A stretch of DNA of 64,000 nucleotides from Candidatus Raymondbacteria bacterium RIFOXYA2_FULL_49_16 (GTDB taxonomy: Bacteria; Fibrobacterota; OXYB2-FULL-49-7; XYB2-FULL-49-35), in assembly GCA_001789205.1 (NCBI GenBank), contig MFYT01000039.1, positions 85,295 through 149,294 on the forward strand. The letters run 5' to 3'. Under the pieces are notes generated by a model. The model did not search any database. It saw only the letters and a program-made list of their open reading frames with translations, and had not been told where the DNA came from. The translations under genes were made by a program, and so were the position numbers. Every line of letters starts with the position of its first letter. Within the stretch, counting starts at the first letter, position 1. Shown piece by piece: positions 42,983-58,675 of the stretch.

Positions 42983-44638
42983 TTATTTCATCAATATCAG
43001 ACGTTTTTCCATGGTCTGAGCGCCTATTTGCGCTCTGGCAATGTACATGCCCGAGGGAAGATGAGATGCGTCCCAGGTAATACACGTTGGCAACTGGCAG
43101 TTGGCCCGCGAAGCGAGGCGAGCAGCTGACAGCTTCTGGAGACGCTTCCCATGTATGTTCAAAATATTTATTTCTATCATCTCTTCACCTGCAATCACCC
43201 GCCCGTGTATCGTTATTCTTGTGCTTGGATTAAGGGGATTGGGGCATGCTTCCATAATGGGACAATCCCATTCCGGCGAGGCGGGCGCTGGTGCGGCGCG
43301 GGTATGAGACTGCTTGACAATAAGTACTCGGCGATACCGCGTCAGGGCAGGACTGCCGTTGTCTGTCACGATGAGCACCACGTGGATTGTGTCAGTATCG
43401 TCAATATCTGACGGTACGAGTACATTCGCCGTCTGCGCGGTTGAATCCGCTATATGGACCAGGCCATTGTATGTCCCGGCTTCCCGGTAGTACTCCCAAA
43501 CGTACGATAGCGCATTGCCGTCAGGATCGCTGGAGCCTGCGGCGCTGAGCGGCACCGTGCTTCCCGGAGAAGCCTCAATGGTCAGATGGGTAAGGTCATC
43601 ACTGCCGTTCACCACGGGAACGGGTTCATGATTGGCTTGGGAAAATCCTTTTACGCACCAGTCCATGCGCGCCTTGAAATCGTTCTGCAAATGGACTGCC
43701 CAGCGTTTGAGCGTGTTGTCGCGGTTGGTGCTCCCCTGCCAGGCGTCCTGCTGGTCCGGCCACGTATATTGAGGACCCCTCGCATAGGGTCCATTGTCAG
43801 TGGCACTGTACCGTCCTGCCCATCCTCCCCATTGCGGGCGCATGGGCTCGCACAGTCCGTTGGGAATGACCAGCAGAAATTCATGCGTGTCTCCCTCCTT
43901 CTGGATCGTATATAACGCACCAAGAGGACCATGGTTCGTCAGGACATCCGCGGTAATATTGAACCCGCCCGCGTTATAGGTAAGCGGCTCGAACCGGTGA
44001 TACCATCTGGAGCCGAACGCTTCGCACGGATAGGTCCCGCATTTTGTGTATGTTAGAATTCGCCAGAGCGGTATTATTGAAGTATCATGGGCCCCGAATT
44101 TGGGATCGCCGTTTATCCTGATTTTGTTCTTGAACGCTTCATATCCGGCCTGACCGCGTTCCGCAAGGACCTTGTCGAGTGCGCGCCACAAGCTGGATTT
44201 TGTTCCGTCGTCCGCACCCCAGTTGGAGAACCACACGGGACGCGGGTCAGCCTTATCCACGGCCGCTATGATCAGATTAACGCCGTCGTCAACAGTATTG
44301 TATCCGGCAACGGTACGGTCCCAGAGAAACTGTTTAGCGGGAAAATCCGCCTTATGCTGTTTCAGTGAATCGTACACCTCTCCGTAGGCGTTCACATAGC
44401 TTTGCACAATCGCCAGACCGGTTGGTAGCGGATTGGGATTGTCCGACCGGGTAACAGGCCGCGTGGCAATAATGCCCTCAATGTCCCATTCATTGGCATA
44501 CAAGAACCAGCGTACCAGAGAAGCTTCATCATCAGGGTCGCCACCAGCATCGGTTTCAATAATACAACGAATTTTTTCAGCATAACCGGTTGCCGCGAAA
44601 ACAGTTATGCAAAAAATAATACATATTTTCTTCAGCAT
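42983..44638 (-). CDS. T9SS-sorted DUF1593 (nucleoside-hydrolase-like) domain protein
   Basis: 'IIETDAGGDPDDEASLVRWFLY' is typical of the DUF1593 N-terminal domain. C-terminal sorting domain 'EACPNPLNPSTRITI...'. Confidence 0.55.
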   Translation of the reverse strand: MLKKICIIFCITVFAATGYAEKIRCIIETDAGGDPDDEASLVRWFLYANEWDIEGIIATRPVTRSDNPNPLPTGLAIVQSYVNAYGEVYDSLKQHKADFPAKQFLWDRTVAGYNTVDDGVNLIIAAVDKADPRPVWFSNWGADDGTKSSLWRALDKVLAERGQAGYEAFKNKIRINGDPKFGAHDTSIIPLWRILTYTKCGTYPCEAFGSRWYHRFEPLTYNAGGFNITADVLTNHGPLGALYTIQKEGDTHEFLLVIPNGLCEPMRPQWGGWAGRYSATDNGPYARGPQYTWPDQQDAWQGSTNRDNTLKRWAVHLQNDFKARMDWCVKGFSQANHEPVPVVNGSDDLTHLTIEASPGSTVPLSAAGSSDPDGNALSYVWEYYREAGTYNGLVHIADSTAQTANVLVPSDIDDTDTIHVVLIVTDNGSPALTRYRRVLIVKQSHTRAAPAPASPEWDCPIMEACPNPLNPSTRITIHGRVIAGEEMIEINILNIHGKRLQKLSAARLASRANCQLPTCITWDASHLPSGMYIARAQIGAQTMEKRLILMK

Positions 44639-44731: not shown

Positions 44732-46243
44732 CTAAGATAGGCTTTTTTCCTTCTTCCGATAGTCAGAGGGGGTTGTTCCAACGGCCTTTTTAAATACCGT
44801 GGAGAAGTGTTCCAGGGAATTATACCCAGCTTCCATGGATATTTCCGTTATGGACTTTTCTGTACCGGAAAGAAGGCATTGGGCCAGCGTAATCCGTTCC
44901 GTGTTGAGGTATTGGGGAAAGGTCATGCCGGTTTTCTGGTTGAAGAGTATGGAGAACTTTCCCTTGTTAACCGCAATAATCCTGGCTGCATCCTCAATGC
45001 GCAAATCAGCGTTTCCGAGGTTTTCTTTAATGTGCAGCAATACCGCATCCAGGGGGTCTCCGATCGGGTGCATCTTGGGTGCGCTACGGACCTTCCGCAG
45101 TATTACTATAAACGCAAAAAGGACGATACCCGCGCAGATGAGGAGTACAAGCATGCATGGTCGGTTGTGGTTTCTGACGAAAACCAAGTTTCCCCATTCA
45201 GAGGGAAAATCGTTGGCCGCAATTGAAACGCCGCTCCAGGTGGTCCGTATGCATTTGCCGTCTTCGCGTTCCCAGTTTCCATTGAAAAAATCAAACCCAA
45301 TAGTATCATTGTTTCGGGGAATTGGCATGCGCAATTCGGTCCAGGGAATGAACAACTCAACGGTATATCCGGAATCCCGGTCTGAATAGTTGTTCACGGT
45401 CCCGAGTATTTGAACCGCTTTCCGGACACCTGTTCCCCAGATATACACCTGCCCGTTTTGGTAATCGAAAACATTCCCCTGGGTCGAATCCACAGATATG
45501 ATTATCTCGCAGTCACCGGTGTCGCGATATACGTTCCGGTCGTGGACCCGGTCAAAACACAGTTCAATGTTATCGTCGTACCACAGCGGAATAATCCGTG
45601 TCGCCGACCCTTCGAATTCTTCTGAAAGCGGCAGCCGCGGTGAGATTGCCGTGAGGTGGCGGTCGTGGACCATGCTTGCGAAGTAAAGCCCGGTTTCGTT
45701 CCAGAAAGACCAGAGCGATATCAGGTTGTCGGTTGAGAGCGTCAGTACCGGCGCCAGTTGCCGCCACTCATCGAGTACGCCGTCTATGCGAATATTTTTT
45801 TTCAGATACGGGACGTTTAGGGCAATGGTTTTATATTCCTGGTTCCGGTCAAAAAAGAGGGGGCGTGATGATTCGGGAAAAACCGTGTCTGTCCCAGACC
45901 CCTGCAAAAAAATGACCGCCATAAGCCACTTTTGTTTAAGGTATTGGTCGGGTATGCCGTGGCAGTCCCAGGCAAATTCGTAGGGTGGAACAGCAACCGG
46001 GCCGATCCGTAAAAAAGGGCTGCTCTGCGCGTTGAATGTATTGAAATTTTTTGTTTCGGCCATGCGATAATAAAAGACCACGGAATCGGCCTTCAGGGTA
46101 TCGATATCCACCTCAAGCCTGACCCGGTCGCCTGTAACCACGGAAAACGGTGCGGGTTTAATGAATCGGGGTGCGGCGCAGAGTGTAAGCGCAAAAAGAG
46201 GAATACCGAGGACCCGCAGATATGGCATACGGGTAAAATACAT
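44732..46243 (-). CDS. Membrane-anchored AraC-family regulator with CBM9-like extracytoplasmic sensor domain
   Basis: CBM9/DOMON-like 'IDGVLDEWRQLAPV'. TM 'MLVLLICAGIVLFAFIVIL'. C-terminal AraC HTH 'ITEISMEAGYNSLEHFSTVFKKAVGTTPSDYR'. Confidence 0.7.
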   Translation of the reverse strand: MYFTRMPYLRVLGIPLFALTLCAAPRFIKPAPFSVVTGDRVRLEVDIDTLKADSVVFYYRMAETKNFNTFNAQSSPFLRIGPVAVPPYEFAWDCHGIPDQYLKQKWLMAVIFLQGSGTDTVFPESSRPLFFDRNQEYKTIALNVPYLKKNIRIDGVLDEWRQLAPVLTLSTDNLISLWSFWNETGLYFASMVHDRHLTAISPRLPLSEEFEGSATRIIPLWYDDNIELCFDRVHDRNVYRDTGDCEIIISVDSTQGNVFDYQNGQVYIWGTGVRKAVQILGTVNNYSDRDSGYTVELFIPWTELRMPIPRNNDTIGFDFFNGNWEREDGKCIRTTWSGVSIAANDFPSEWGNLVFVRNHNRPCMLVLLICAGIVLFAFIVILRKVRSAPKMHPIGDPLDAVLLHIKENLGNADLRIEDAARIIAVNKGKFSILFNQKTGMTFPQYLNTERITLAQCLLSGTEKSITEISMEAGYNSLEHFSTVFKKAVGTTPSDYRKKEKSLS

Positions 46244-46385
46244 GTTTCAATGCATTGAAAAAAATGACAATAAGTATATGATTTTAACCAATCGTTGTAT
46301 GTATATGTTCTTACTGAACTGGCTTTTTTTCCCTTGTTATCGTGGTCCAGGAGGGTTATTTTTTTAAAGAAGAGGACGAATTTAC

Positions 46386-47585
46386 ATGCGGAATATGGAA
46401 AGCGTGGGCCTGTCTCGCCATCGTGTCCGCTACGAATCTTTCGGAGGAATACTTTCTTCAACCGACCCGCCTTTTCTTGCATGGGTTGATCGCACATTTC
46501 TCAGAGACGCCGGCTACGAAGAAAGTCCTTTATGGCATACAGATGACCCAGGGTATCTTTCGGCCCCCACTGAAGCGCATTTCTCAATAACAGAAAAGTG
46601 CAGCAGCGGATGTGCGGGGTGCTACATGGATTCTTGCGGAGAGACTGCCGTTGATCTTTCCCTTGAAGAGGTAAAGGCCGTTCTTGATACCTTGCGTGCC
46701 ATGGGCGTCTTTCATGTGGCGTTAGGGGGTGGGGAGGCTTTTGAACGGCCGGACTTTGAGGACATTGCCGCCTACTGCCGCGAAATCGGCCTGGTCCCAA
46801 ATCTTACCACCAATGGACAGCGAATGGGTGACCGCGAAATCGGCATATGCAGAATGATGGGTCAGGTAAATGTGTCCCTGGACGGGCTGGAAAGCCACTA
46901 TGGAGTAAACGGAAGAGCCGGGAGCTTTGAGCGGGCAGACCAGGCGTTGCGGAAACTCCGCGCCGCTGGCATTGCGGCAGGTATAAATTGTGTTGTATCT
47001 GTGAAAAATTATTCCCATATCAAAGATATAGCGGAATACGCCTGCACCCGCGGACTGGCGGAAATTGAATTCCTTAAATACAAGCCCTCGGGCAGAGGAA
47101 AAGACCGGTACCCGGATTTCGCGCTCAGCCAGGAGATGATCCGTTCTTTTTATCCGCGTATCCAGGAAATCGCCGCATCCCTGCCTGTGGAAATTAAAAT
47201 TGACTGTTCCTTTATTCCGGCAATGATGTACCATCACCCTCCTCTTGAAGAACTGGAGAAATGGGCGGTGGCTGGCTGTGACGGAGGAAACATGCTTTTG
47301 GGAATACGAAGCAGCGGTGTTTTTTCCGCCTGTTCTTTTATTTCAAACAATGACGCCGAAAGCGCTTTATCCCTTAAAACACACTGGCACACCTCAGCGC
47401 ACCTTTCACGATTCAGACGATGGACACAAAACCCTCCCGAACCCTGCGCGTCGTGCACCTATCTAACCATCTGCAGGGGTGGATGCCGGGCAGTGGCATT
47501 ATATTATAACCATGATTTCTCCTCGCCCGACCCTGAATGTCCGTTCGTATACGATTATATGTGCTGTAAAGGAGCCCTTAAATGA
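46386..47585 (+). CDS. Radical SAM / SPASM-domain protein (putative peptide-modifying maturase)
   Basis: Cx3Cx2C 'CSSGCAGC'. C-terminal Cys-rich SPASM-like region 'CASCTYLTICRGGCRAV'. Its stop overlaps the next start (ATGA). Confidence 0.75.
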   Translation: MRNMESVGLSRHRVRYESFGGILSSTDPPFLAWVDRTFLRDAGYEESPLWHTDDPGYLSAPTEAHFSITEKCSSGCAGCYMDSCGETAVDLSLEEVKAVLDTLRAMGVFHVALGGGEAFERPDFEDIAAYCREIGLVPNLTTNGQRMGDREIGICRMMGQVNVSLDGLESHYGVNGRAGSFERADQALRKLRAAGIAAGINCVVSVKNYSHIKDIAEYACTRGLAEIEFLKYKPSGRGKDRYPDFALSQEMIRSFYPRIQEIAASLPVEIKIDCSFIPAMMYHHPPLEELEKWAVAGCDGGNMLLGIRSSGVFSACSFISNNDAESALSLKTHWHTSAHLSRFRRWTQNPPEPCASCTYLTICRGGCRAVALYYNHDFSSPDPECPFVYDYMCCKGALK

Positions 47586-47755
47586 ATAAACCAGTCATTC
47601 TGCCTGAAGGCGTCTTAAAAATTAAAAGAGGATATAATCCCAACTCAAGCAGTATCGGCAGCGTTGTATACAGTTTTCCCTATGCCTTTATAGCTTTAAG
47701 CGCGGTTCTCGCCGTGATCGCGCTTTTAAAAAAGAAGAAAGATAAAACCCCATGA
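47582..47755 (+). CDS. 57-aa membrane peptide A (conserved 'LKIKRGYNPNSSSIG' core, C-terminal TM helix and Lys-rich tail)
   Basis: MNKPVILPEGVLKIKRGYNPNSSSIGSVVYSFPYAFIALSAVLAVIALLKKKKDKTP. ATGA overlaps on both sides. Paralog at 50983. The core is conserved at the protein level despite synonymous codon differences. Confidence 0.5.
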   Translation: MNKPVILPEGVLKIKRGYNPNSSSIGSVVYSFPYAFIALSAVLAVIALLKKKKDKTP

Positions 47756-49179
47756 GTCTTCCAAACGCCGCGGCAATTGCCGCGTGCCTTTTCTGCGGGG
47801 TATACGCTCAGCCTTTTTCAGCCCTCAGCCAGGGGACCGCGAAAGACGTGTTTTCTTTTCAAAAGGAACTGCGCACTGCTCTGGAAAACCCATACAAATA
47901 TTTTCATACCGGCGCTTTTATTGCTCTCATAGATCCGGTCATCAGCGATAGTACCGCCATTGTGAGCGATATTCCAGCCGATTCCATAAAGACGCTGCTG
48001 GAACAGGCCCGCGCCCGGCACTCCTATCCCCTTGTATTTGTCTTTAGTCTTCTGTATGCGTCGGCCAGCGCTGGTACGTCCTCTAAAACCGAATGCGCCT
48101 GTTTAAACGAAGCGGCAAGCCTCGCCTTCCGACGGCTCAGCAGGCCCCATGAAGCGCTTCGCATTTTCAAAGCAGCTTCTTTACGGGGATGCGAAGGGTC
48201 GTATGATTCAGCCGAAACGGTTGACCGCTATATCGAAAGCGATATGAGCATTGACGCCCTGTTAAAGGAAAAGTTCTACCGGAAGGACAGTGTGGAAAAA
48301 GAGCGGTATGTATCAGCCCTCATCGCCGATCTCACCGCCCATCCGCATTCCTCTCTCCGAATGGAAGCGATGAAACGGCTGGGCGATGTCTATTTTGATC
48401 TTAAAAATTATCCGAAAATGAAACGATGGTATTTGAAAGTCCTGCAGACCGACCCGTCCCTGCGCAAGACTACGCCAATCGGATACCGGCTTACTATCGG
48501 AGACAGCCATATCAAACGCACTACCATACTGTATTTATTTTACGCATCCTACCTGTTTCTGGGATTTTTTCTTTTACGGCGCATACGGAGCGGGGGTGGC
48601 ATTGATACAGCCTTTCTGTTCAAACGCTTCTCCCTATTCGCCCTAGCGCTACTACTGTTCGGCATAGTGCTGTTCTTGGCCGACCTGATACTTTTTAAGC
48701 GGACAATCGGCGAACTGCTCAAGCAGGAGTCGTTCGCCTTGCGCTTCACCGATCCGGTAGTCCCGCTGAGCTTTCTTGATGTTGTTCCGCGAATCCTCCT
48801 GATAAAAATATTCTGTATTGGCCTGGCACCGCTTCTGTTCGCCACGCTCTGCAGCGCCACGAACAAATCCCGCTCCCGGCTTACCGGAAGTGCGGCGCTG
48901 CTGGTTTTCACCGCTGTACTATGGGGGCATTTTACCGTCGCCAGTTTCTATAACGAATACCTGTATAATGACGGCATCATCCTCAAGAGCCGCTACCTCT
49001 ACTCAGGCGAAATTGAATCGCTGCTGATGAACGACCTGGATAAAGTGATTAAAGCAAACCCGGATTTTTTCTTTAAAAGCAAAAATTCCGATCTTCGGGT
49101 TTTTATACGCAAGAACTTTTCAGAAGAGATGCGCAGCAAAACGCCCATGGGAGACTATTATCGTGAACAGAGACGCTGA
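47752..49179 (+). CDS. Membrane protein: periplasmic TPR-like N-terminal domain plus a C-terminal polytopic TM region
   Basis: Signal peptide 'AAIAACLFCGVYA'. About 250-aa helical/TPR-like domain. Four to five C-terminal TM helices. Confidence 0.5.
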   Translation: MSLPNAAAIAACLFCGVYAQPFSALSQGTAKDVFSFQKELRTALENPYKYFHTGAFIALIDPVISDSTAIVSDIPADSIKTLLEQARARHSYPLVFVFSLLYASASAGTSSKTECACLNEAASLAFRRLSRPHEALRIFKAASLRGCEGSYDSAETVDRYIESDMSIDALLKEKFYRKDSVEKERYVSALIADLTAHPHSSLRMEAMKRLGDVYFDLKNYPKMKRWYLKVLQTDPSLRKTTPIGYRLTIGDSHIKRTTILYLFYASYLFLGFFLLRRIRSGGGIDTAFLFKRFSLFALALLLFGIVLFLADLILFKRTIGELLKQESFALRFTDPVVPLSFLDVVPRILLIKIFCIGLAPLLFATLCSATNKSRSRLTGSAALLVFTAVLWGHFTVASFYNEYLYNDGIILKSRYLYSGEIESLLMNDLDKVIKANPDFFFKSKNSDLRVFIRKNFSEEMRSKTPMGDYYREQRR

Positions 49180-49180
49180 T

Positions 49181-50986
49181 ATGCGATTCCTGCCGCTTTT
49201 GGCCTGTTTTCTTCTGCTTGTCTGCGGACCGCAAAGGCACGGGGGTACGCTGCCTGAACTCACCGTCATCGACCGCTTTTCCGCCAGCATAGAATGGAGC
49301 ACGGCAAACGCGATCCGGGGTATGCTGTTGTATGCCGCGGAAGGCGAGACCGAACGGACCATAACCGAAGAAACCCGGACAACGTTTCATCACATAACCA
49401 TATCAGGCCTGCTTCCCGATAAAGTGCATACCTACCGGATCAACAGTGGTCCTGATCATACATACCGTTTCCGCACTGCTCCGGGAGCCACATCGTCTTT
49501 CAGGTTCGCGCTTATTGAGACATATGAGAAAACCCTGCAACAGGCATATCCCGATTTTGTCATTATTACTAGCGCCGATTCACACGTCTGCCGTGAAATC
49601 ATAAAAAAATATGCGGACCTCCATACCGGAACCGCCTTTTATTATGGAACGTTTGCCTTTACCTGGGGAAACAGCACATTTTCTTCAGATACAATAATCG
49701 ACTCAAAAAGTGAAAATCGTTTTTTGCTGGCTGCCACACAGTTGCCCGAATCCGCTGACAGCAATACGGCCTTGATTGTCCTTGATAAAAAAGCCCCATT
49801 GGGGATTGATACAACAGACCAGGCAATAACGGTGCATACCGCCGGGACAGCGTTGCTGTTTGAAGTGCAGGGTCCTGAAATTATCGCATCATTGATTAAC
49901 ACTGCATCCAACAACCCTGCCGAACTTACTGTGCGCCGGGGAAGCCTCGATTATAAGAAAAGCTGCGTCTATTGCCGCCGTCTTCTTGAAGACCGGAAAT
50001 ACCATGAAAGCATCAGGTGGTATCGGCGGTTCATGGAGAACGATACCGCTACTTCGCGTATCGACGATGCGTTATACCAGGTAGCCTATATATACGATCA
50101 TTATCTCTTTGATTATCCCAATGCGGTTTCTTCCTATCAGGAACTGGTGGACCGGTTTCCAGAAAGCAGCAAGGTCCGTACCGCCAGGTTCAGGATATCT
50201 TATATCAGCACTCATGCTGACCACGGATTTGAACCGCTTAAAGTGTTTGAGCGCGCCCGGCTTTCCCGTTTTCAGATAAATAGTGAGGAGTCTGCCCGTG
50301 AAGTAGAGGAACTTTTATCGAAATATCCGGGGACCTCCCTTGAAAAGGACATTCTTTTCTGGCTTGGTAATGTCTATGCTCCGGCGCATTCTGAGAAAGC
50401 GCTTTCCTGCTTTCTCCGCCTGGCCAAAGACAGCAATGCGGAGACCGCGTGGCGCGGAGGAATGGCCGCAGCAGACCTGTATTATCGCGACAGCAGATAT
50501 ACAGAAGCGCGACAGCAGTATATATTGCTCAGGTCTTACGCCGGCCAGGACCGGGCGGCCCTGGAAATAAAAATCAGCAGGTGCATACGAAATGCCCGTA
50601 GAGAAGTTGTCAGAATAGTTTTCCTGATATTCACCCTTGCCGTCATGCTCGCGTCACTTTGTATAAAGCCCCGTCCCGCGGCTGCCGCTCTATGTACGCG
50701 GTTCCTCGCTTTTCTTGCGGTTTACGCTGTGGCAGCAGCGCTGCCCTTTTTGATCTGGAAAGACTTTCTCATGCAAGCAAAGAACTTTACCCTCGCGGCA
50801 ATACCCGTACTGGCGTTTTCCTCAACGCTGATCAAAGAACGGTTTCCGCTTTTTTTTGCTGGAATAGACAACACGGTTTTACGCCTTTGCGTATCTCTTG
50901 CCGCGGCGTGTATGTTTACGCTGGGTATAATATACCTTTTGTTGTATTATTTTCATTATCTCTTTATTGTTGAAGGCATAGTATGA
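49181..50986 (+). CDS. Membrane protein: PAP-type N-terminal Fn3-like domain, degenerate phosphoesterase-like domain, TPR repeats and C-terminal TM helices
   Basis: Signal peptide. 'SIEWSTANAIRGMLLY...HHITISGLLPDKVHTYRI' resembles the N-terminal domain of purple acid phosphatases. Metal-binding motifs are not evident. TPR-like 'ALYQVAYIYDHY'. Polytopic C-terminus. Confidence 0.5.
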   Translation: MRFLPLLACFLLLVCGPQRHGGTLPELTVIDRFSASIEWSTANAIRGMLLYAAEGETERTITEETRTTFHHITISGLLPDKVHTYRINSGPDHTYRFRTAPGATSSFRFALIETYEKTLQQAYPDFVIITSADSHVCREIIKKYADLHTGTAFYYGTFAFTWGNSTFSSDTIIDSKSENRFLLAATQLPESADSNTALIVLDKKAPLGIDTTDQAITVHTAGTALLFEVQGPEIIASLINTASNNPAELTVRRGSLDYKKSCVYCRRLLEDRKYHESIRWYRRFMENDTATSRIDDALYQVAYIYDHYLFDYPNAVSSYQELVDRFPESSKVRTARFRISYISTHADHGFEPLKVFERARLSRFQINSEESAREVEELLSKYPGTSLEKDILFWLGNVYAPAHSEKALSCFLRLAKDSNAETAWRGGMAAADLYYRDSRYTEARQQYILLRSYAGQDRAALEIKISRCIRNARREVVRIVFLIFTLAVMLASLCIKPRPAAAALCTRFLAFLAVYAVAAALPFLIWKDFLMQAKNFTLAAIPVLAFSSTLIKERFPLFFAGIDNTVLRLCVSLAAACMFTLGIIYLLLYYFHYLFIVEGIV

Positions 50987-51156
50987 ATCATTCCAAAGGC
51001 CGCATTCTTAAAATTAAAACCGGGTATAACCCGAATTCCAGTTCAATAGGAACGCATGTTTCTTATTTTATAAAAGGCATGTCCGCGTTCGCGGTACTCA
51101 TTAACGGCATCATGGCCGTTCTGTACACGTTCCGCGAGAAAAGGAAAAAGAAATAG
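50983..51156 (+). CDS. 57-aa membrane peptide B (paralog of peptide A)
   Basis: MNHSKGRILKIKTGYNPNSSSIGTHVSYFIKGMSAFAVLINGIMAVLYTFREKRKKK. The start overlaps the upstream stop (ATGA). Confidence 0.5.
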   Translation: MNHSKGRILKIKTGYNPNSSSIGTHVSYFIKGMSAFAVLINGIMAVLYTFREKRKKK

Positions 51157-51161
51157 CCGCT

Positions 51162-51668
51162 ATGAGCTTTTTTAAGATCATGAGTGTCTTTGCTATCTGC
51201 GCCGGCTGCATAGGCTGCGCCGGCCGCCGGGAACAAACAGTGGCCCCTGATTTTCTTCTGAATGATCTGCAGGACCGGAGATTTTATCTGAGCAGCTGCA
51301 AAGGAAAGGCCGTGCTTCTGAATTTCTGGTCTACTCATTGCGCACCCTGCATGGAAGAAATGCCCCATTTGGAAAAACTCTATGGGGAATTCTCGAAACA
51401 GGGAGTGGTGTTTGCGGGAATATGCATTGATCCGGCGGAAGCAGGATATCTGGAAACGCTGGTACATGGTCTTGGCGTCACGTATCCTGTGCTTGCCGAT
51501 ATTTCAGGCCGGACAGCGGCGCTGTATGCGGTAACAGCCGTACCCGTAACCATTATCATCTCTCCGGAGGGTATGATACACAGCAGAACAACAGGATATA
51601 GGGAAGCGTATATACAGCGTTTCAGAGAACAGCTTGCCTCTCTGACAGGCGCATCCGGGACACCATGA
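51162..51668 (+). CDS. TlpA/ResA-like thiol-disulfide oxidoreductase (AhpC/TSA-redoxin fold)
   Basis: Lipoprotein-like signal 'FAICAGC'. 'LLNFWSTHCAPCMEEMP' contains a CxxC. Confidence 0.65.
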   Translation: MSFFKIMSVFAICAGCIGCAGRREQTVAPDFLLNDLQDRRFYLSSCKGKAVLLNFWSTHCAPCMEEMPHLEKLYGEFSKQGVVFAGICIDPAEAGYLETLVHGLGVTYPVLADISGRTAALYAVTAVPVTIIISPEGMIHSRTTGYREAYIQRFREQLASLTGASGTP

Positions 51669-53233
51669 AGCGTTTCATTGTAACCAGTGCCCTTGCATGC
51701 GTCCTTGTCGCCGGACCCAAAGCCGCATCTGAATTTCTTATCAGGCCTTTTGTCCAATCCATAACCAAGGAGTCCGCCGCTATCTGCTTCTCTCTGCCGA
51801 ACGATGCTGTTTCGCGCACGGTAATCGGCACGGCCGACAACGCTGAAACAGCCGTTTATACGGCGCATGAATCCTTAGTAAAAGCGCGTTTCACCGGTCT
51901 TAACCCGGAAACGAAATATTATTATACTGTTTCAGTCAATGGTACAGAACTTCTATCGCCGCCAGGAGAGTACTATTTTTTTACCGGATCCGCGGCATTG
52001 GAAACGCCGGTGACCATCGCGGTATATGGTGATACGCGCAGCGGCGAGGAAAGTTTTGATCTTGACCATCGGTCGGTCGTGGAAAGCATACGTCATTATT
52101 CGTCTCCCGATCTTCTCCTGCATACCGGAGATGTGGTCAATACGCAGGATCCCGAAGGGTGGAACCGGTTTTTTCACATCGAACATGAGCTTTTAAAAAA
52201 CACGCCGCTATATCCGGTACGGGGCAACAGTGACGGCGACCGGACTGATATCCTGCATATGTTCGCGCTTCCCGGAGATACCACCTGGTATTCCTTCTCC
52301 GCGGGACCGGTATACTGCATCGCCCTTGATCTGCAGAATAATATGACCGACAGCTATTATGCAAAACATATCGGCCCCGCAAGCGATCAGTGGAACTGGC
52401 TGACTCGCATGCTGGCCTCTGATGAACGGAAACGCTGCCCGTTTACACTGGTCTATTTTCACGCCCCGCTTTTCCCTCCGGATGACGAAACCAGCCCGGC
52501 AATGAAAGACCATCTTGTTTCACTGTTTGAAAAAAGCAATGTGGACCTTGTAATCAACGGCCAGCACTATTTTTCGTATGCCCAGCGGAATGGCGTAACC
52601 TATATGATAAGCGGCGGCGGGGGCGCCCTCCTTGACCGGTATCAGGCCAAACGATCAGCGTCGGTACGGGTGTATGAACCTGTTTTTCACCATCTGCGGA
52701 TCACGGCAAACTATCCCGCGCTCACCATAGAAGCGGTAGACAATGCGGGAACCGTCTTCTTCTCGCATTCCATTATCGCCTCTTCGCCTTCCCCGGGAAA
52801 AGAACAACCCCAGCCGGGCCTCACCGAAAACAGGATACCACTGCATATTTTCGGCAGTAGTGGCTGCGCCGAATGTGATTTACTTAAAAACGTGCTGCTT
52901 CCTGAAATTGAAAAGTCGCTCGCGCCCTATACCTTCTCCATTACTTTCTATGACACTGATATTCCCGAACACTATGAGCGGTTTCTCGTGTACGAGTCCC
53001 GTCTGGGCGACCGTAAGCACACCCTTCCTGCACTGTTATATGCCGACAGAATCCTGAGCGGCCCTGAACTTGACCTGCTTTCCCTGAAAGAGTTTTTTAA
53101 AAGCCGCGTCATGAGACAGGATAAAAACAGCGTCAAATCCCTTGGTTCCGAGAGGTATCCGATGTATCTTTATTTTATATTGGTTGCCGCAGGCATAGGG
53201 TTGTTCGTGTTTATTAAGAAAAGGAACGGATAA
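51665..53233 (+). CDS. Membrane-anchored purple-acid-phosphatase-like metallophosphoesterase with a thioredoxin-fold C-terminal domain
   Basis: Signal peptide. PAP N-terminal domain 'KYYYTV'. Metallophosphoesterase motifs 'AVYGDTRSG','HTGDVVN','RGNSDG','YFHAPLF'. 'GSSGCAECDLL' contains a CxxC. C-terminal TM 'MYLYFILVAAGIGLFVFI' followed by a KKRNG tail. Confidence 0.65.
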   Translation: MKRFIVTSALACVLVAGPKAASEFLIRPFVQSITKESAAICFSLPNDAVSRTVIGTADNAETAVYTAHESLVKARFTGLNPETKYYYTVSVNGTELLSPPGEYYFFTGSAALETPVTIAVYGDTRSGEESFDLDHRSVVESIRHYSSPDLLLHTGDVVNTQDPEGWNRFFHIEHELLKNTPLYPVRGNSDGDRTDILHMFALPGDTTWYSFSAGPVYCIALDLQNNMTDSYYAKHIGPASDQWNWLTRMLASDERKRCPFTLVYFHAPLFPPDDETSPAMKDHLVSLFEKSNVDLVINGQHYFSYAQRNGVTYMISGGGGALLDRYQAKRSASVRVYEPVFHHLRITANYPALTIEAVDNAGTVFFSHSIIASSPSPGKEQPQPGLTENRIPLHIFGSSGCAECDLLKNVLLPEIEKSLAPYTFSITFYDTDIPEHYERFLVYESRLGDRKHTLPALLYADRILSGPELDLLSLKEFFKSRVMRQDKNSVKSLGSERYPMYLYFILVAAGIGLFVFIKKRNG

Positions 53234-54123
53234 TGAAATCACGAAACGTTTCATCAATAGCGGAAACACGGACTGTTTTTGTTGATCTGAAATGGATAAA
53301 GGGAATATTGTTTGGAATTCTTTTTATGTTTATTGTCCCGCTGGCGCTATCATGCTCAAAAGAAACTTCCGGTACATTCAATCCCGCAGACCATTATTTA
53401 AAAATAGAAGAACTCAGGGCCGCTAAACCGCTGGACTTGCACAAAATTGAAAGCATATACACCACACAACTTGCACCGCGATATCACACGGCCTATCCCG
53501 CTATTCACGCATCCATCCTTGAAGCTATGAGGAAAGGGGAGGCCGGAGAAAACGTGCGTGTGCAATCGCAGACCATAAGCAAGGAGCTGCAGAAGATTTT
53601 CTACCGGGAGCTTGCCGCCTCGCTCAGCGCGCTTGAAGCGGAAGCAGACCCTGCGATGTATGCGCAGGAACTTGAAAGGGCGAAATCCGCGTATGCGTGT
53701 TTAAAACCGCTGTCTAAGCGCAGGAGCGAATGGCTGAAGAACGGCACAGCGTTTGACGACCTTTTCGCGTCAGCCTTCAGCACTTTGGCCTCAATGCCTG
53801 GCAAAGAAACCGTAAAAAAAACATGTGATCGGATCATTTTATTATTTCGCGACATTTTCATTTACTCTGTTTTTTATGAACTGTTCGGCATAGAGACGTC
53901 ACGGGGAACAGATAACATCACATGCGAAGAGAAAATGGCTGAAGCAAGGATCTTTCTGGAATCAGCTCTGCCATTCTGCAGGCAACAGCAGTTCTGCGTG
54001 CCGCTGGCAACAGCGTTTCATAAGGACTATAGGGACCTGGATATTGAAAAAACCAGGGAAGACTTGTTTGCCGCGTTCCCAGGGCTGGATACGCACGCAG
54101 TGTTGAAAGCGTCCGGGAAATAA
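53233..54123 (+). CDS. Hypothetical membrane/lipoprotein (last gene of the coupled operon)
   Basis: TM region with lipobox-like 'LALSCSKE'. The start overlaps the upstream stop (TAATG). Confidence 0.4.
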   Translation: MKSRNVSSIAETRTVFVDLKWIKGILFGILFMFIVPLALSCSKETSGTFNPADHYLKIEELRAAKPLDLHKIESIYTTQLAPRYHTAYPAIHASILEAMRKGEAGENVRVQSQTISKELQKIFYRELAASLSALEAEADPAMYAQELERAKSAYACLKPLSKRRSEWLKNGTAFDDLFASAFSTLASMPGKETVKKTCDRIILLFRDIFIYSVFYELFGIETSRGTDNITCEEKMAEARIFLESALPFCRQQQFCVPLATAFHKDYRDLDIEKTREDLFAAFPGLDTHAVLKASGK

Positions 54124-54162: not shown

Positions 54163-56211
54163 TTATCTTAGCAGCACCGCGCGCTTGGTATACACAATTC
54201 CATTGACGCATATGCGGATTATGTACGTTCCGGATGGCATGTTTCGGGCGTTCCAGGTGTATGCGTGCGTACAAGCGGTATTCACAGTACGTTTATTGTA
54301 CAGGAACGAGGTCCCCGCATTGTGTACGCATACGCCTTGCACATTATAAATGCGCAAGGTTGGGCTGGTTGCGGCGGGTAATCCATTTGTTGGATCAGGT
54401 GATAAACCCGCCCCAATAAATATGGATATCACCATAACTGGATTAAACGGGTTTGGTTCCACTGTTACAGCCATATCATTCTGCGTTGAGGCCGATATGC
54501 CCGCTCCGGTTGTTCCTCCGCACGAGCTTTTGTCTTCGGGCGTATTATAATCGGCAGAATAAAACCACACTTCCTGTGGAGCAACAAGCGTATCATTACC
54601 TGAATAGAGTTCAAGATCAAAGGACAGGTCAGAGCTTGTAGAGCTCACCTGATGGACCTCTGCCGCAATGACATTCCCGCCATTCCGGAAATGCGATATA
54701 AAAGAGGTGATGTCGTTGACCGCGAATGCCGATCCCTCGTGATCTCCGGAAGCAAAAGTGCTGTACGTCACTTCACCCGGAAGCATGGATCTGCGGGCGA
54801 TCTCGTATCCATTCAAATAGACCACAACACCATCATCATATTTTACTCCTAGCGAACAGGACGAAAAGGCGGACGCATCATCAATAAAAAAACTTTTCCT
54901 GAAATAGGCCGCATCCACATGAGGTATCACGGTGTTTTCGTCCCCATCGCCATAGCCGATTTCAGCCGTCCCCGTTGACCAGCTTCCATCGTCATATCCC
55001 TGGTCTTTCCATGTAACGGTATAACAGAGTGTGTCAATGGTAAAAGTAATAACACGGCTTGTATCCATCACATTGCCTGAATCATCGACCGCGCGCACAT
55101 AGAAGGTATATGCCATGTCATTTTCCAGAGAAAGAGTTGTTGTATGGATTTTTGCGCCCTCTCCGGTGACAAACTGATTGGCCATTTCATAATAAGATTG
55201 GTCGGACATGCTCCAGCGAACAAAGGCGTTTTCCTGCGTCTCAACCAGCACTATCACTTCCGTGGTGTTTACGGTACCCGATGGTTTGCTATCTGTAACA
55301 TACGGCGCCAATGAATCGGGGCCTAGTATCCAGTAATCGGTCATGGCCCAGGAATCATTATTAAAAGGGCAGGCCACCGTCATAAATCTCAGATTTGCCC
55401 CATCAACCTCGACATATACAATAGTATTATTATTATCACCACCCGTAATGCCCAAGGCGCCCGCGTCAATCTGGTATATGCCTCCGGGTTCATCCGGATA
55501 GCACAGACCGTCAAACGCACAGGCGGAATGGGGGTCAAGCACCCTCATTCTGCAGAAGGAATGGGTATGTCCGACCATAATACCCTTGACTTTTGTACCG
55601 TGTGAAAGCAGCATGTTCCACAGATCGTCCGCCCAGGCAGCTGGTGGTCCGGCATATCTTCCGCGGGGAAACGCCGGACCATGAAATGAAATGAATACAT
55701 GATCTGCGAAATCCGCATCCGTGATCAGGCTGTCCATCCAGTTGATCCAGGTTGCCTGACCAAGCCCGGAATACTGGTCAAAAACAATGATTCTCACGTT
55801 TTTCCAGTCCACGTAATAATTACACCTGTTGTCTCGCAGGACAACACTGTCAAGAGACGGGAGTATTGTATCGAGCATAAGGTCAACATCAGCAGGGGTC
55901 TCGTCATCATGATTACCCATGACCGGATAATAGGGGGGCGCCTGGTATTGCGGATCCTGTACGATGCCCCAGTTTTCATTTGCCAGGTCCAGATCACCGG
56001 CAGCGACAATGAATTCCGCTTTGGGAAATGGAACGGTCTCGTTAATGGTCATATCCCTGATTTCGGTGAGCATATACCGTACGCCAGTATGCCATCCGCA
56101 ATTGTCGGCCACAAGTGCAAAGGTCCACTTTTGGCAGAATGCCGACACTGTCAGAAGATATATACAAAGTGTTATAAGGATGTGCTTCATACTATATTGA
56201 TTCAGCCTCAT
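54163..56211 (-). CDS. T9SS-sorted secreted purple-acid-phosphatase-like metallophosphoesterase (paralog of the ORF at 4364)
   Basis: 'AAGDLDLANENW','MGNHDDE','GHTHSF'. Shared domain 'YTFYVRAVDDSGNVMDTSRVITFTIDT...GYGDGDENTVI'. C-terminal sorting domain 'VEPNPFNPVMVISI'. Confidence 0.7.
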   Translation of the reverse strand: MRLNQYSMKHILITLCIYLLTVSAFCQKWTFALVADNCGWHTGVRYMLTEIRDMTINETVPFPKAEFIVAAGDLDLANENWGIVQDPQYQAPPYYPVMGNHDDETPADVDLMLDTILPSLDSVVLRDNRCNYYVDWKNVRIIVFDQYSGLGQATWINWMDSLITDADFADHVFISFHGPAFPRGRYAGPPAAWADDLWNMLLSHGTKVKGIMVGHTHSFCRMRVLDPHSACAFDGLCYPDEPGGIYQIDAGALGITGGDNNNTIVYVEVDGANLRFMTVACPFNNDSWAMTDYWILGPDSLAPYVTDSKPSGTVNTTEVIVLVETQENAFVRWSMSDQSYYEMANQFVTGEGAKIHTTTLSLENDMAYTFYVRAVDDSGNVMDTSRVITFTIDTLCYTVTWKDQGYDDGSWSTGTAEIGYGDGDENTVIPHVDAAYFRKSFFIDDASAFSSCSLGVKYDDGVVVYLNGYEIARRSMLPGEVTYSTFASGDHEGSAFAVNDITSFISHFRNGGNVIAAEVHQVSSTSSDLSFDLELYSGNDTLVAPQEVWFYSADYNTPEDKSSCGGTTGAGISASTQNDMAVTVEPNPFNPVMVISIFIGAGLSPDPTNGLPAATSPTLRIYNVQGVCVHNAGTSFLYNKRTVNTACTHAYTWNARNMPSGTYIIRICVNGIVYTKRAVLLR

Positions 56212-56299: not shown

Positions 56300-58675
56300 T
56301 TAGTTTAGCAATATCAATTTTTTTGACATCATTACCTTGCCATTACAATGAACTTTTAATACATATATGCCTGCCGGCATATCAGATGCGTCCCATACGG
56401 CTGTTAACGAGCTTTTTATTGCCGCAGTTACTGAAGCAATCGAAGCAACCCTCCTCCCTTTTACATCAAACACGTCAAATCGCGGGGTGGCATTCTTGCC
56501 GTTAGGATTTTGCATTATAAAGCCCATGTTTTTAATCGATATTGTTGTTGATGGATTGAAGGGGTTTGGAGAAACGTCAACCCCTATGTCCGATAAAAAC
56601 CCGTTAGAAGTATATGCCTCAGTAACAAGATCCGGGGGCATGCAACCCTCGTCATGATAGGACCATTCGCTCTCAAGACCAAACAGATCGCTGTTGTTTA
56701 TTGCCAATCTGGCGGCAAAGGTAAAAAAAGTATTATTGGCCGGTTTTTTATGCACTTCTATTGCCAGGGTATTTGTTCCGTTTATTAAAAGATCTGAATA
56801 TTCTGAAATATCCGCATTTAAAAACAACCATCCTGCCGTATCAGCGGCCCAGGTGTCGTATGTCACCGGCCCTTCGGACATTTCAGCCCTCAGCACTTCG
56901 CGGCCGTTAAGATATGCCACCGAACCATAATGCAAATTCTGGTACAGCTGCAACCTGGTCACCTCGGAAACATCAGGTATGTTAAAAAGTTTCACGAAAT
57001 ATGCCGCATTTATCCCTGATGCAAGAGGCGTATTGCTGCTGTAATTACCGAAACGGGCCAGCCCGGCGCTCCAGCCGGGTCCGGTGGTAGTATAACCTGG
57101 ATTTTTCCATTGCGGTCCGCTAATGGAAGTGTCATAGACAAAGGTAATGATCTCAGGGGCTGATTCATTGCCCGAATCATCTTTCGCGCGTAGATACACT
57201 GTTTTGGTGGTTGAATATTGACAATCAACATTTGCCGTATGAACAACACCGCCGGTAATGGTAAACATATTTTCCATCTCTGCATACGATCGGTCTTCGA
57301 GGTCCCACTTTACTGTGGCATTTTCATTCGTTGCTGCCATAAGCTCCGCAGGACAGGCATGTATTACTCCTCGAGGCCCGGCCGAGACAAAGCGCGGGTC
57401 ATAATAGTCGTTTGTGTCCGCCAGAAACGTAATGACCGCGGACGTGTCCATTATATTTGGCGTTGGTTCATCATCAGCCGCCCGGATATAAAGAGTCTTT
57501 GTTTCCCCCTGCAGACAGGTAATGACCGTGCTGTGTAAAACGTCTCCGGTAATAGAAAATGTATTGGCCATACTGCCGTATTCCTGGTTGGTATAGCTCC
57601 ATTTTACCGTAGAGTTCTCATTCGTATTTACTGTAATGACCGCATCAAGAGATCGTACGGTATCAATCATGGACAGGCCCGGAGAAAAAACGGTAAAATA
57701 AGGCGCCTCCCTGTCCGGTGCGTCATTTACCGTCCAGAGATTCGCTATCTGCCAATCAGGATCATCGGCCTCCCAATTCCACAGACCTTTTTTCACCATA
57801 AAAGTAACGCTGTCATCATCAACCTGGATCCAGACAATTCCCATTCGCGGATCGTTCATTGCTATGCCGACATGTCCTGGATCTATCTGCCATATGCCGT
57901 CATCTTCATGCGCCCTGATATCAGTCCTCTCCGCGGTCTCATAACATCCGGTATCAGTTGCGCAGGGTCCGTCAGGATCTTTTATACGAAGAATATCGTA
58001 CCAGTGGGTGTGGCCCACAAGAACACCTTTAACTTTATTGCCGTGAGAGATAAGCATGTTCCAGAAATCTGGGACCCAGCTCCCTCTGCCTTCGATTGAT
58101 GTATGGCGCTGCCGTGCAAATGCGGGACAATGAAAAGCGATAAAAACATGTTTATTATTACCGGCTCCCGCAATCATGCTGCTGACTGAGTCTATCCAGC
58201 CGGTTTCTCCCCAGAAAGCGGTATACTGATCAAGGACAATCAGGCGAACGTTTTTCCAGTCTACATAATAGTTAAGGCCATCGCTAAAAACCGTCGTGCT
58301 GTCCTGCTTAACAAGAATGGAATCAACCATATATTCAACACAGGTCACGCCGCTCACTGCCGAACACCCTGATTCAACATCATGGTTCCCGTTAACAGGG
58401 AAATAGGCAACGCCATTGCTGTTGGCCCTCACCACATCATATAGAAGGCTATCTCCCACGGAGCTTGCTAGGCTAAGGTCGCCCCCAGCCACAATAAACT
58501 CAGCTTTCGGAAACGCAGGAGATGTATTTACCGTAGCATTAGTCAGTTCTTTGCAGGCCCATCGTACTGGTTTTTCACTGGTCAGATTATCGGCATAATA
58601 ACCGAAGCTCCATTTTTCACCAAACGCAACGGTGCTCAATAGAAGAATAATTGTAATCAGCAGGTAATTTGTCAT
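56300..58675 (-). CDS. T9SS-sorted secreted metallophosphoesterase with duplicated beta-sandwich domains (paralog of the ORFs at 4364 and 54163)
   Basis: 'VAGGDLSLAS','NGNHDVE','VGHTHWY'. Two 'TITGxVxHST' repeat domains. C-terminal sorting domain 'VSPNPFNPSTTISIKN...KVMMSKKLILLN'. Confidence 0.7.
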   Translation of the reverse strand: MTNYLLITIILLLSTVAFGEKWSFGYYADNLTSEKPVRWACKELTNATVNTSPAFPKAEFIVAGGDLSLASSVGDSLLYDVVRANSNGVAYFPVNGNHDVESGCSAVSGVTCVEYMVDSILVKQDSTTVFSDGLNYYVDWKNVRLIVLDQYTAFWGETGWIDSVSSMIAGAGNNKHVFIAFHCPAFARQRHTSIEGRGSWVPDFWNMLISHGNKVKGVLVGHTHWYDILRIKDPDGPCATDTGCYETAERTDIRAHEDDGIWQIDPGHVGIAMNDPRMGIVWIQVDDDSVTFMVKKGLWNWEADDPDWQIANLWTVNDAPDREAPYFTVFSPGLSMIDTVRSLDAVITVNTNENSTVKWSYTNQEYGSMANTFSITGDVLHSTVITCLQGETKTLYIRAADDEPTPNIMDTSAVITFLADTNDYYDPRFVSAGPRGVIHACPAELMAATNENATVKWDLEDRSYAEMENMFTITGGVVHTANVDCQYSTTKTVYLRAKDDSGNESAPEIITFVYDTSISGPQWKNPGYTTTGPGWSAGLARFGNYSSNTPLASGINAAYFVKLFNIPDVSEVTRLQLYQNLHYGSVAYLNGREVLRAEMSEGPVTYDTWAADTAGWLFLNADISEYSDLLINGTNTLAIEVHKKPANNTFFTFAARLAINNSDLFGLESEWSYHDEGCMPPDLVTEAYTSNGFLSDIGVDVSPNPFNPSTTISIKNMGFIMQNPNGKNATPRFDVFDVKGRRVASIASVTAAIKSSLTAVWDASDMPAGIYVLKVHCNGKVMMSKKLILLN

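Follow-up and report, generated by a model that had tools for sequence, protein, structure and literature searches.

A conserved radical SAM/SPASM cassette with membrane-embedded GYNPNSSS peptides resembles peptide-maturation systems but lies outside every named family

Introduction

Radical S-adenosylmethionine (SAM) enzymes of the SPASM type that are paired with peptides have so far been linked to soluble natural products or cofactors, e.g., PQQ, mycofactocin, sactipeptides, streptide, and darobactin. Here we describe a run of eight genes in a 64,000-nucleotide (nt) stretch of contig MFYT01000039.1 from Candidatus Raymondbacteria bacterium RIFOXYA2_FULL_49_16 (the entire stretch is termed the window), which encodes a radical SAM/SPASM enzyme, two 57-residue peptides (A and B), two membrane proteins with tetratricopeptide repeats (TPR), named TM1 and TM2, and three further envelope proteins. 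Judged from its sequence, this gene set works like a radical SAM/SPASM peptide-maturation cassette that is outside every named family, is widespread, and has an unusual class of presumed, membrane-embedded substrates. The substrate is presumed to be a micro-protein embedded in the membrane, and its ten-residue loop is nearly invariant over at least a dozen phylum-level groups. Solving the cassette would probably reveal new radical chemistry on a loop of Asn, Ser, and Tyr as well as a new function of the anaerobe cell envelope.

In mycofactocin biosynthesis, as in the cassette, a radical SAM/SPASM enzyme is encoded beside a small peptide whose target region contains a Tyr. The precursor MftA, however, is soluble, comprises about 30 residues, and is modified at its C-terminal Val-Tyr, whereas the GYNPNSSS motif of the cassette peptides is internal, is followed by a membrane segment, and has Phe instead of Tyr in 11% of the family; moreover, neither MftA-like genes nor those for MftB, MftD, MftE, and MftF are present at the cassette loci. 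With SuiB/SuiA (streptide), SkfB, CteB, and PqqE the cassette shares an accessory domain of the enzyme that precedes the barrel and a presumed substrate encoded next to it. Differences are that the N-terminal domain of the cassette enzyme has only about 50 residues and no detectable similarity to PqqD, and that the substrates of those four enzymes are soluble leader-core peptides which are later cleaved and exported, for which the cassette contains no genes. The PQQ system is characterized by PqqA with its E-x3-Y motif plus PqqB, PqqC, and PqqD, none of which has a counterpart among the neighbors at the cassette loci, and GeoRSP proteins (TIGR04303/TIGR04304) pair with a SPASM-only protein, whereas no second SPASM protein is encoded in the operon. 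Sactipeptides, ranthipeptides, and SCIFF peptides need Cys donors, which the cassette peptides lack, and anSME needs a (C/S)-x-(P/A)-x-R motif in a sulfatase, whereas the loci contain no sulfatase and the motif reads G-Y-N-P-N-S-S-S-x-G.

A conceptual analog is the QhpD/QhpC pair of quinohemoprotein amine dehydrogenase. There, a radical SAM/SPASM enzyme cross-links in the cytoplasm a small protein that later becomes a permanent subunit of an envelope enzyme, so that the matured protein is kept as a subunit and is not a natural product. QhpC differs in being rich in Cys and in having a cleaved leader and a dedicated ABC exporter, whereas the cassette peptides are hydrophobic and without cysteines, and no exporter accompanies them. 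Full-text literature searches with motif strings and component combinations returned nothing relevant to the cassette; a study of Bacteroidales describes ribosomally made, posttranslationally modified peptides (RiPPs) of a different system with a GG motif (PMC10352776).

Results and Discussion

Eight tightly packed genes form the operon

A previous reading of the window made from the DNA letters alone (the sequence-only reading) had delineated a single operon of eight plus-strand genes at positions 46386 to 54123. An open reading frame (ORF) check recovered all eight at the coordinates given there, which are as follows:

46386..47585, + strand, radical SAM/SPASM enzyme, 399 residues
47582..47755, + strand, peptide A, 57 residues
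47752..49179, + strand, TM1, TPR membrane protein, 475 residues
49181..50986, + strand, TM2, membrane protein with a part like purple acid phosphatases (PAP) and TPR, 601 residues from the ATG
50983..51156, + strand, peptide B, 57 residues
51162..51668, + strand, TlpA/ResA-like redoxin, 168 residues
51665..53233, + strand, PAP-like metallophosphoesterase-CxxC protein, 522 residues
53233..54123, + strand, exported all-helical protein, 296 residues

The junctions also agree with that reading, with ATGA overlaps at 47582, 47752, 50983, and 51665, a 1-nt gap at 49179/49181, and a TAATG overlap at 53233; a 5-nt gap at 51156/51162 precedes the TlpA gene. The genes form one tightly packed run, as expected for a single operon, and the domain identities that had been proposed for the eight proteins were borne out by Pfam, NCBIfam, and profile comparison. 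For TM2, an alternative GTG start is present at 49163; the ATG at 49181 is the most likely start and is also the one used in a public gene call on the identical contig.

The peptide motif is under selection at the protein level

Peptide A consists of a basic N-terminal strand, the invariant motif, a hydrophobic segment, and a KKKKDK tail, and a peptide identical to it is encoded on more than 17 public contigs. Peptide B is a paralog that shares this motif but differs in its hydrophobic segment. The motif codons are located as follows:

47630..47659, + strand, codons of G17-Y-N-P-N-S-S-S-I-G26 in peptide A, the proposed modification site (from motif logo and codon variation)
51022..51051, + strand, codons of G14-Y-N-P-N-S-S-S-I-G23 in peptide B, same motif as in peptide A

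The family consensus, drawn from 98 distinct peptides of the loci described below and 148 representatives clustered at 50% identity, is K-G-[RK]-[IV]-L-[KR]-[VIL]-K-x-G-[YF]-N-P-N-S-S-S-[IMLV]-G (Tyr in 86%, Phe in 11%), after which come about 29 hydrophobic residues and then a polar tail. Conservation among the 148 representatives reaches 100% for G, N, N, S, and G of the motif and 99% for P and the two other S residues. A profile search of 1.84 billion representative proteins yielded 364 family members, nearly all with a length of 54 to 130 residues; the locus-linked peptides comprise 55 to 95 residues, and 10 to 29 residues lie ahead of the motif. No family match was obtained for the peptides in Pfam (2025) or NCBIfam (June 2026). 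The hydrophobic segment falls into classes that track the partner gene, i.e., peptides beside TM1, peptides beside TlpA, and a Geobacter type. Apparent fusions of the peptide to long ORFs in loci of high GC content were rejected because the stop-to-stop ORFs merely read through in frame.

Across 96 distinct DNA versions, the codons at the invariant motif residues vary freely. Since the codons are scrambled while the residues stay fixed, selection acts at the protein level, and on this sequence evidence both small ORFs are real genes. Serine 5 of the motif is encoded by TCN in all 96 versions and serine 6 by AGY in 92 of them, and serine 7 uses both codon families. TCN and AGY codons can interconvert only via a non-serine residue; as the codon families are fixed or nearly so at positions 5 and 6, these two positions appear never to have tolerated a non-serine intermediate. 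Neither window peptide contains Cys and Cys is not conserved in the family, which excludes thioether chemistry. Similarly, the occurrence of Phe at the Tyr position indicates that the hydroxyl group of this Tyr is not essential.

The sequence-only reading had located the peptide cores in the periplasm, which the distribution of charges does not support. In the 98 peptides, the N-terminal flank with the motif carries about 4.7 Lys/Arg and 0.5 Asp/Glu residues, compared to about 3.9 Lys/Arg and 2.7 Asp/Glu residues in the 15 positions past the hydrophobic stretch; by the positive-inside rule, this bias favors a cytoplasmic location of the motif. For peptides A and B of the window, the topology is not readable from the sequence, because the two flanks are basic to about the same degree. 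Conceivably, the peptide could also form a re-entrant hairpin whose ends both lie inside the cell.

The metagenomic protein P0256 (JGI metagenome 3300042731, 1,176-bp contig) joins a PqqD domain (53.7 bits) and a GYNPNSSS peptide in one reading frame; its downstream neighbor is a truncated ORF of 191 residues. PqqD is a RiPP recognition element (RRE), and the fusion may be taken as a hint of the Rosetta-stone type at presentation of the peptide to a radical SAM enzyme. A phmmer search for PqqD-like ORFs in 86 loci found none.

The enzyme carries a SPASM domain and is predicted to fold like peptide modifiers

The 399-residue enzyme matched the Pfam model Radical_SAM (PF04055) with 61.8 bits at a cut-off of 29.5. 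Its CxxxCxxC motif (C72/C76/C79) is invariant across 18 homologs from several phyla, as are C274, C298, C316, C354, C357, C363, C367, and C385, and the SPASM model TIGR04085 scored 44.2 bits (cut-off 27) on the Desulfobacter homolog. Because the eight further C-terminal cysteines are invariant across phyla, the sequence indicates a full SPASM domain and places the enzyme in both the radical SAM and the SPASM family. Named SPASM families were a different matter. The best NCBIfam model in three phyla was MftC (TIGR03962), with 133 to 149 bits against a cut-off of 265. For the window enzyme, MftC (133.4 bits), GeoRSP (132.2 bits; cut-off 400), NirJ2 (109 bits; cut-off 500), and PqqE (77.9 bits; cut-off 381) all stayed below their cut-offs, the Geomesophilobacter and Desulfobacter homologs were likewise below the cut-off of every named SPASM family, and the name assigned by PGAP is generic only. 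With every named SPASM family in NCBIfam below cut-off and no match for the peptides, the earlier remark that the composition of the operon fits no recognized family is supported.

An AlphaFold2 model of the enzyme (predicted local distance difference test [pLDDT], 89.6) displays alternating strands and helices. In a Foldseek search with this model, the best matches included SuiB (E value, 5e-19) and then SkfB, PqqE, CteB, and anSME, and the top-ranked peptide modifiers spanned E values of 5e-19 to 2e-14 and TM-scores of 0.58 to 0.73 at 15 to 20% identity; the likeness to anSME is of the general SPASM kind only. The lipid-modifying radical SAM enzyme GDGT-MAS was also among the fold matches, at a TM-score of about 0.4. 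The N-terminal domain is modeled as a three-stranded β-sheet (residues 12 to 51) plus short helices, and R15, E17, F19, G20, G21, P28, L31, V34, and W50 are invariant in it. According to the model, this sheet could bind the basic strand of the peptide by β-augmentation.

Enzyme, peptide, and TM1 are conserved together across phyla

A pattern scan of one genome per species identified 328 genomes with a relative of the enzyme. The best 80 loci and five from protein look-ups were analyzed, with 41 non-redundant loci having at least 6 kb on both sides of the enzyme gene. Enzyme homologs with 45 to 60% identity occur in many phyla, and the cassette was found in anaerobic bacteria of at least a dozen of them. 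The peptide motif was detected in 77 of the 86 loci by pattern and in 78 by hidden Markov model (HMM). In the 41 loci with full flanks, a peptide (38 loci), a TM1-family protein (39 loci), and a PAP-like phosphoesterase (36 loci) are encoded near the enzyme. The constant core consists of enzyme, peptide, and TM1, and the phosphoesterase is its commonest companion. The sequence-only reading had named conservation as a unit in related genomes as its own test, and the cassette does hold together in Fibrobacterota, Planctomycetota, Bacteroidota, Spirochaetota, Desulfobacterota, Acidobacteriota, and others, with gene order permuted between phyla and content kept. Desulfobacter curvatus DSM 3379 (type A, as defined below) and Geomesophilobacter sediminis Red875 (type B) are cultured carriers. 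Across 82 loci, neither a peptidase nor a dedicated exporter is conserved with the enzyme-peptide-TM1 triad.

Four types of loci can be distinguished. Type A has the content of the window, usually in the order TM2-(296-residue protein)-peptide-TlpA-phosphoesterase-peptide-TM1-enzyme-(DUF2950-like protein), and comprises loci labeled Planctomycetota, Bacteroidota, Spirochaetota, Desulfobacterales, Hydrogenedentota, Aminicenantes, and Myxococcota; Fibrobacterota loci have a rearranged gene order or a cassette divided between two modules (L001, L008). In type B, which occurs in Nitrospirota, Geobacterales, and Acidobacteriota, genes for a pentapeptide-repeat protein, a canonical PAP, a PEP-CTERM protein, TM1, the peptide, and the enzyme are followed by those for (a six-helix protein), HupE_UreJ_2, a TonB-dependent receptor, ExbB/D, and TonB. 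Type C combines an ATP-binding cassette (ABC) system of the SBP_bac_11 type with peptide, TM1, and enzyme in Brocadiaceae and other metagenome-assembled genomes of Planctomycetota type, and type D has the order TPR protein-TM1-peptide-enzyme-ABC ATPase-FtsX-like permease-ZnuA.

Two type C loci also encode a DSP-type phosphatase. A membrane-anchored phosphatase of this type (HCxxGxxR; PTP-NADK, 30.4 bits) is encoded directly upstream of TM1 in two Planctomycetota loci (L083, 8226 to 8849; L068, 8457 to 9122), the former of which has no PAP-like gene within 10 kb, and in L023 a H+-pyrophosphatase gene follows that of the enzyme. With these DSP-type phosphatases and the H+-pyrophosphatase, the phosphoester theme recurs at triad loci with non-homologous enzymes. 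The six-helix membrane protein encoded after the enzyme in L002 (11149 to 11769) and 13 other type B loci has 206 residues and conserved histidines and belongs to no family in Pfam or NCBIfam; it may be a small redox protein of heme b or MsrQ-like type. Furthermore, 7 of 22 type B loci contain aptamers of the cyclic di-GMP (c-di-GMP)-I class (RF01051, or the variant RF03167 "GGC"):

L054, 3099-3173
L061, 2114-2188
L036, 4799-4873
L033, 5089-5164
L047, 11396-11470
L048, 9339-9416
L029, 16578-16657

Four of the seven head a PAP-TM1-peptide-enzyme-HupE-TonB receptor run, and none was found in seven loci of type A, C, or D or in the window. Cyclic dinucleotides may control the cassette version of Nitrospirota/Geobacter.

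TM1 and TM2 are paralogs, and TM2 carries a degenerate PAP-like domain

TM1 comprises a signal peptide, a periplasmic TPR domain recognizable at the profile level, four membrane helices, and a C-terminal tail. TM2 starts with a signal or lipobox, continues with a PAP-like domain that has no metal ligands, and ends with a TPR (TPR_6) plus four-helix membrane part. In hhalign comparisons, TM1 matched the Planctomycetota-type TM1 with 99% probability (E value, 2.5e-18), and the TM1b profile matched columns 267 to 591 of TM2 with 98.7% probability, which makes TM1 and TM2 paralogs of one family as far as profiles can tell. As peptides A and B are paralogs as well, the operon would contain two matched pairs of a peptide and a TPR membrane protein. 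The N terminus of TM2 matched the N-terminal half of the phosphoesterase with 98.8% probability (E value, 4.5e-17) and lacks the GD/GD/GN motifs, in agreement with the degenerate PAP-like domain that had been proposed for the second TPR protein. These relationships are visible only by profile-profile comparison, since BLASTP detected no similarity of TM2 to the phosphoesterase or of TM1 to TM2. The alignment of TM1 has no invariant polar residue and no conserved catalytic residue, a homolog search with TM1 returned TM1 alone, and the TM1/TM2 membrane domain belongs to no family in Pfam (2025) or NCBIfam (June 2026). A single-sequence AlphaFold2 model of TM1 (pLDDT, 49.9) was unusable.

Phosphoesterase and thiol-redox components

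The 522-residue protein consists of a signal peptide, a PAP N-domain, a divergent metallophosphoesterase domain, a CxxC domain (C401/C404), and a C-terminal membrane anchor; Pfam detected Metallophos (46.9 bits) and Pur_ac_phosph_N. Like purple acid phosphatases (PF16656 plus PF00149 plus PF14008), its family combines the PAP N-domain with the Metallophos core, to which the long forms add the PAP C-domain. It differs from them in its fusion to a CxxC module and a membrane domain and in its motifs: instead of the PAP set GDxG, GDxxY, GNH[DE], VxxH, and GHxH, the family shows GDxR, GDxVD, G[DN][NS]D, H266, WH301, and H342, with G[DN][NS]D as motif III and WHxYER as motif V, and the PAP tyrosine of GDxxY is absent. 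The phosphoesterase partner in type B loci has the canonical motifs GNHD and GHxH. The idea that the Tyr of the peptide supplies the missing tyrosine ligand was ruled out by the Phe variants of the motif.

For the tail of the 522-residue protein, previously described as a thioredoxin-fold domain, a conserved CxxC (kept in 83% of the family) and a cis-Pro fit that description, and no HMM match was obtained. In most other phyla, a domain of multiple helices makes up the tail and has two conserved cysteines in the membrane (NPC, ELxC). This membrane domain of the long forms gave only weak matches to SfLAP and ArsG in Pfam and NCBIfam, and a kinship with HupE was rejected because hhalign found no relationship.

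The 168-residue protein has a lipoprotein-type signal and a WSTHCAPC motif and matched AhpC-TSA (PF00578; 84.1 bits) and Redoxin (PF08534; 58.1 bits) in Pfam; the ResA subfamily model reached 101.9 bits, below its cut-off of 170. By sequence, it is a member of the TlpA/ResA-like fold family, presumably a periplasmic thiol:disulfide oxidoreductase, and not ResA proper. Together, TlpA, the CxxC module, and the two-cysteine membrane domain of the long forms point to a reducing relay. The 296-residue protein has conserved K117, Q120, P159, R163, R164, E216, C231, K234, and E237 and no relative in PDB, Pfam (2025), or NCBIfam (June 2026); its earlier designation as a lipoprotein is plausible, with a lipobox cysteine in most homologs.

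Proposed model and alternatives

We tentatively propose, at slightly less than even confidence, an envelope system of two modules that centers on small membrane peptides matured by the radical SAM enzyme; that the peptides are substrates of this enzyme is, taken by itself, fairly probable. Module 1 would comprise the enzyme, peptide A, and TM1. The cytoplasmic enzyme would recognize the N-terminal basic strand of the peptide, K-G-[RK]-[IV]-L-[KR]-[VIL]-K, probably through its own N-terminal three-stranded sheet, and then act by radical chemistry on the invariant loop next to this strand, G-[YF]-N-P-N-S-S-S-x-G, most likely to form an intramolecular cross-link or to carry out a C-H oxidation involving the aromatic residue and an Asn or Ser. 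By analogy with the SPASM enzymes that form cyclophanes, ethers, and formylglycine, a cross-link from the aromatic ring or a Ser oxygen to the carbon of a neighboring Asn or Ser, or an oxidation of Ser or Asn, appears most plausible. The peptide would not be released; instead, the hydrophobic segment of about 29 residues would hold it in the membrane, paired with its TPR/four-helix partner. Module 2, i.e., TM2, peptide B, TlpA, the phosphoesterase-CxxC protein, and the 296-residue protein, would repeat the pair of a peptide and a TPR membrane protein, with peptide B serviced by the same enzyme, and would couple it to the periplasmic PAP-like metallophosphoesterase, to the dead paralog of the latter on TM2, and to a thiol-reducing relay. 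Retention of the peptides in the membrane, as modified partners of the TPR/four-helix proteins, is favored because no peptidase or exporter travels with them and TM1 has no invariant polar residue. A tie of the family to periplasmic phosphoester chemistry is suggested by the dead PAP domain on TM2 and by the near-constant presence of a PAP-like or other phosphatase, and the transporters, TonB systems, and riboswitches of types B to D point to cell surface or uptake physiology.

The sequence-only reading had likened the operon to a RiPP or membrane-peptide maturation module. Maturation of a peptide is made more likely by the peptide-modifier fold matches and the PqqD-peptide fusion, whereas a released product is unlikely, because the cassette conserves neither a leader peptidase nor an exporter. 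Compared with the definition of a RiPP cluster, precursor and maturase are encoded adjacent to one another, an RRE is seen only as the PqqD fusion in one homolog, and functions for leader removal and export are not conserved across the 82 loci. A classical RiPP cluster with an exported product (e.g., a metallophore), in which the modified N-terminal part of the peptide is cut from its membrane anchor, released, and re-imported, is accordingly improbable in our view, even though TonB-dependent receptors, TonB/ExbB, and HupE_UreJ_2 (type B), the SBP_bac_11 ABC importer (type C), or ABC/FtsX plus ZnuA (type D) adjoin the triad in other lineages, a layout similar to that of methanobactin-type loci. 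Besides the missing protease and exporter, the window version has no transporter, the conserved segment offers no His, Cys, Asp, or Glu ligands, and the class-specific conservation of the hydrophobic segment fits a lasting membrane partner. Still further from the evidence, and to be given very little credence, is a degenerate C-terminal sorting signal of PEP-CTERM/LPXTG type, with TM1 and TM2 as sorting enzymes. The sequence of a motif, a hydrophobic helix, and a basic cluster and the PEP-CTERM proteins in type B loci recall such signals, which consist of a cargo domain, a signal peptide, and the targeting motif for a cognate sortase or exosortase; the peptides, however, have neither cargo domain nor signal peptide and only the short stretch ahead of the motif, TM1 has no invariant polar or catalytic residue, and the radical SAM enzyme would be left unexplained.

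Unlikely as well, yet with more in its favor, is that the peptides are not substrates but structural subunits or tethers that bring the enzyme to TM1, with the enzyme acting on a tetrapyrrole, a lipid, or another non-peptide. The tetrapyrrole enzymes NirJ2 and AhbD score 97 to 124 bits, near MftC, GDGT-MAS is among the fold matches, and a tight protein-protein interface would also keep the motif invariant. In addition, the TlpA/ResA-like, DsbD-clan-like, and TPR membrane parts recall the parts list of cytochrome c maturation (CcmG, CcmI, ResA, and CcdA). The thiol branch of that pathway (ResA/CcmG, CcdA/DsbD, CcmI) indeed has similar parts in the TlpA/ResA-like CxxC protein, the two-cysteine membrane domain, and the TPR proteins, whereas heme lyase, CcsBA/ResBC, and a CxxCH substrate are missing, so that the resemblance is one of parts and not of pathway homology. 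Moreover, no heme or tetrapyrrole genes occur in 80 loci, the peptides are devoid of CxxCH and other cofactor-binding motifs, peptide modifiers lead the fold matches with TM-scores clearly above that of GDGT-MAS, and P0256 joins the peptide to a PqqD domain.

Several observations weigh against peptide maturation in two coupled modules. NirJ and AhbD score almost as high as MftC, and five loci have the enzyme without a recognizable peptide. The PqqD-peptide fusion is a single sequence on a 1.2-kb contig, and hhalign found no similarity between the N-terminal domain of the enzyme and the PqqD part of P0256, which makes "mini-RRE" a structural guess as a label for this domain. The phosphoesterase lacks the GNH[DE] histidine and so may not be a hydrolase, and the accessory genes vary by lineage (HupE with TonB receptors, ABC systems, or TlpA with TM2). 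Finally, if the motif is cytoplasmic, as its charge bias suggests, it can be connected to the TPR, phosphoesterase, and redox proteins of the periplasm only through the membrane, a connection that the model does not explain.

A more far-reaching version of the maturation model, which we regard as possible but rather unlikely, holds that the GYNPNSSS peptides remain permanently in the membrane as integral micro-proteins, that the radical SAM enzyme covalently remodels their loop on the cytoplasmic side, and that they form one envelope machine of anaerobic bacteria, so far unrecognized, with the TPR/four-helix proteins. If true, no class of membrane subunits matured by a radical SAM enzyme, or of peptide-derived cofactors anchored in the membrane, would have preceded them, and the machine would control periplasmic PAP-type phosphoesterases and, in other lineages, uptake systems regulated by c-di-GMP riboswitches.

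Surroundings of the operon

The best match to a sigma-70-like promoter upstream of the first gene is as follows:

46255..46282, + strand, TTGAAA-16-TATGAT, consensus match only

Counts of sigma-70-like promoter sites and of terminators in the operon region were no higher than the shuffled expectation, and no Rfam match with an E value of at most 1 was found between 40 and 58 kb of the window. A divergent gene at 44732-46243 (- strand) encodes an AraC-family regulator with an N-terminal CBM9-like domain, a membrane helix, and a C-terminal helix-turn-helix, a candidate one-component transmembrane sensor for the operon. The region around the operon is rich in secreted hydrolases. Upstream, type IX secretion substrates are encoded at 42983-44638 (- strand) and 40199-41758 (- strand), including an Sde182-like protein with a nucleoside-hydrolase-like domain. 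The window also encodes three further large metallophosphoesterases at 54163-56211, 56300-58675, and 4364-6619 (all - strand), the first two immediately downstream of the operon and convergent with it; two of the three have type IX secretion C-terminal sorting domains above or close to the Pfam cut-off. Additional PAP or metallophosphoesterase genes, some of them giant (1,700 to 2,000 residues), flank the cassette in L001, L028, L046, L063, L064, and L075.

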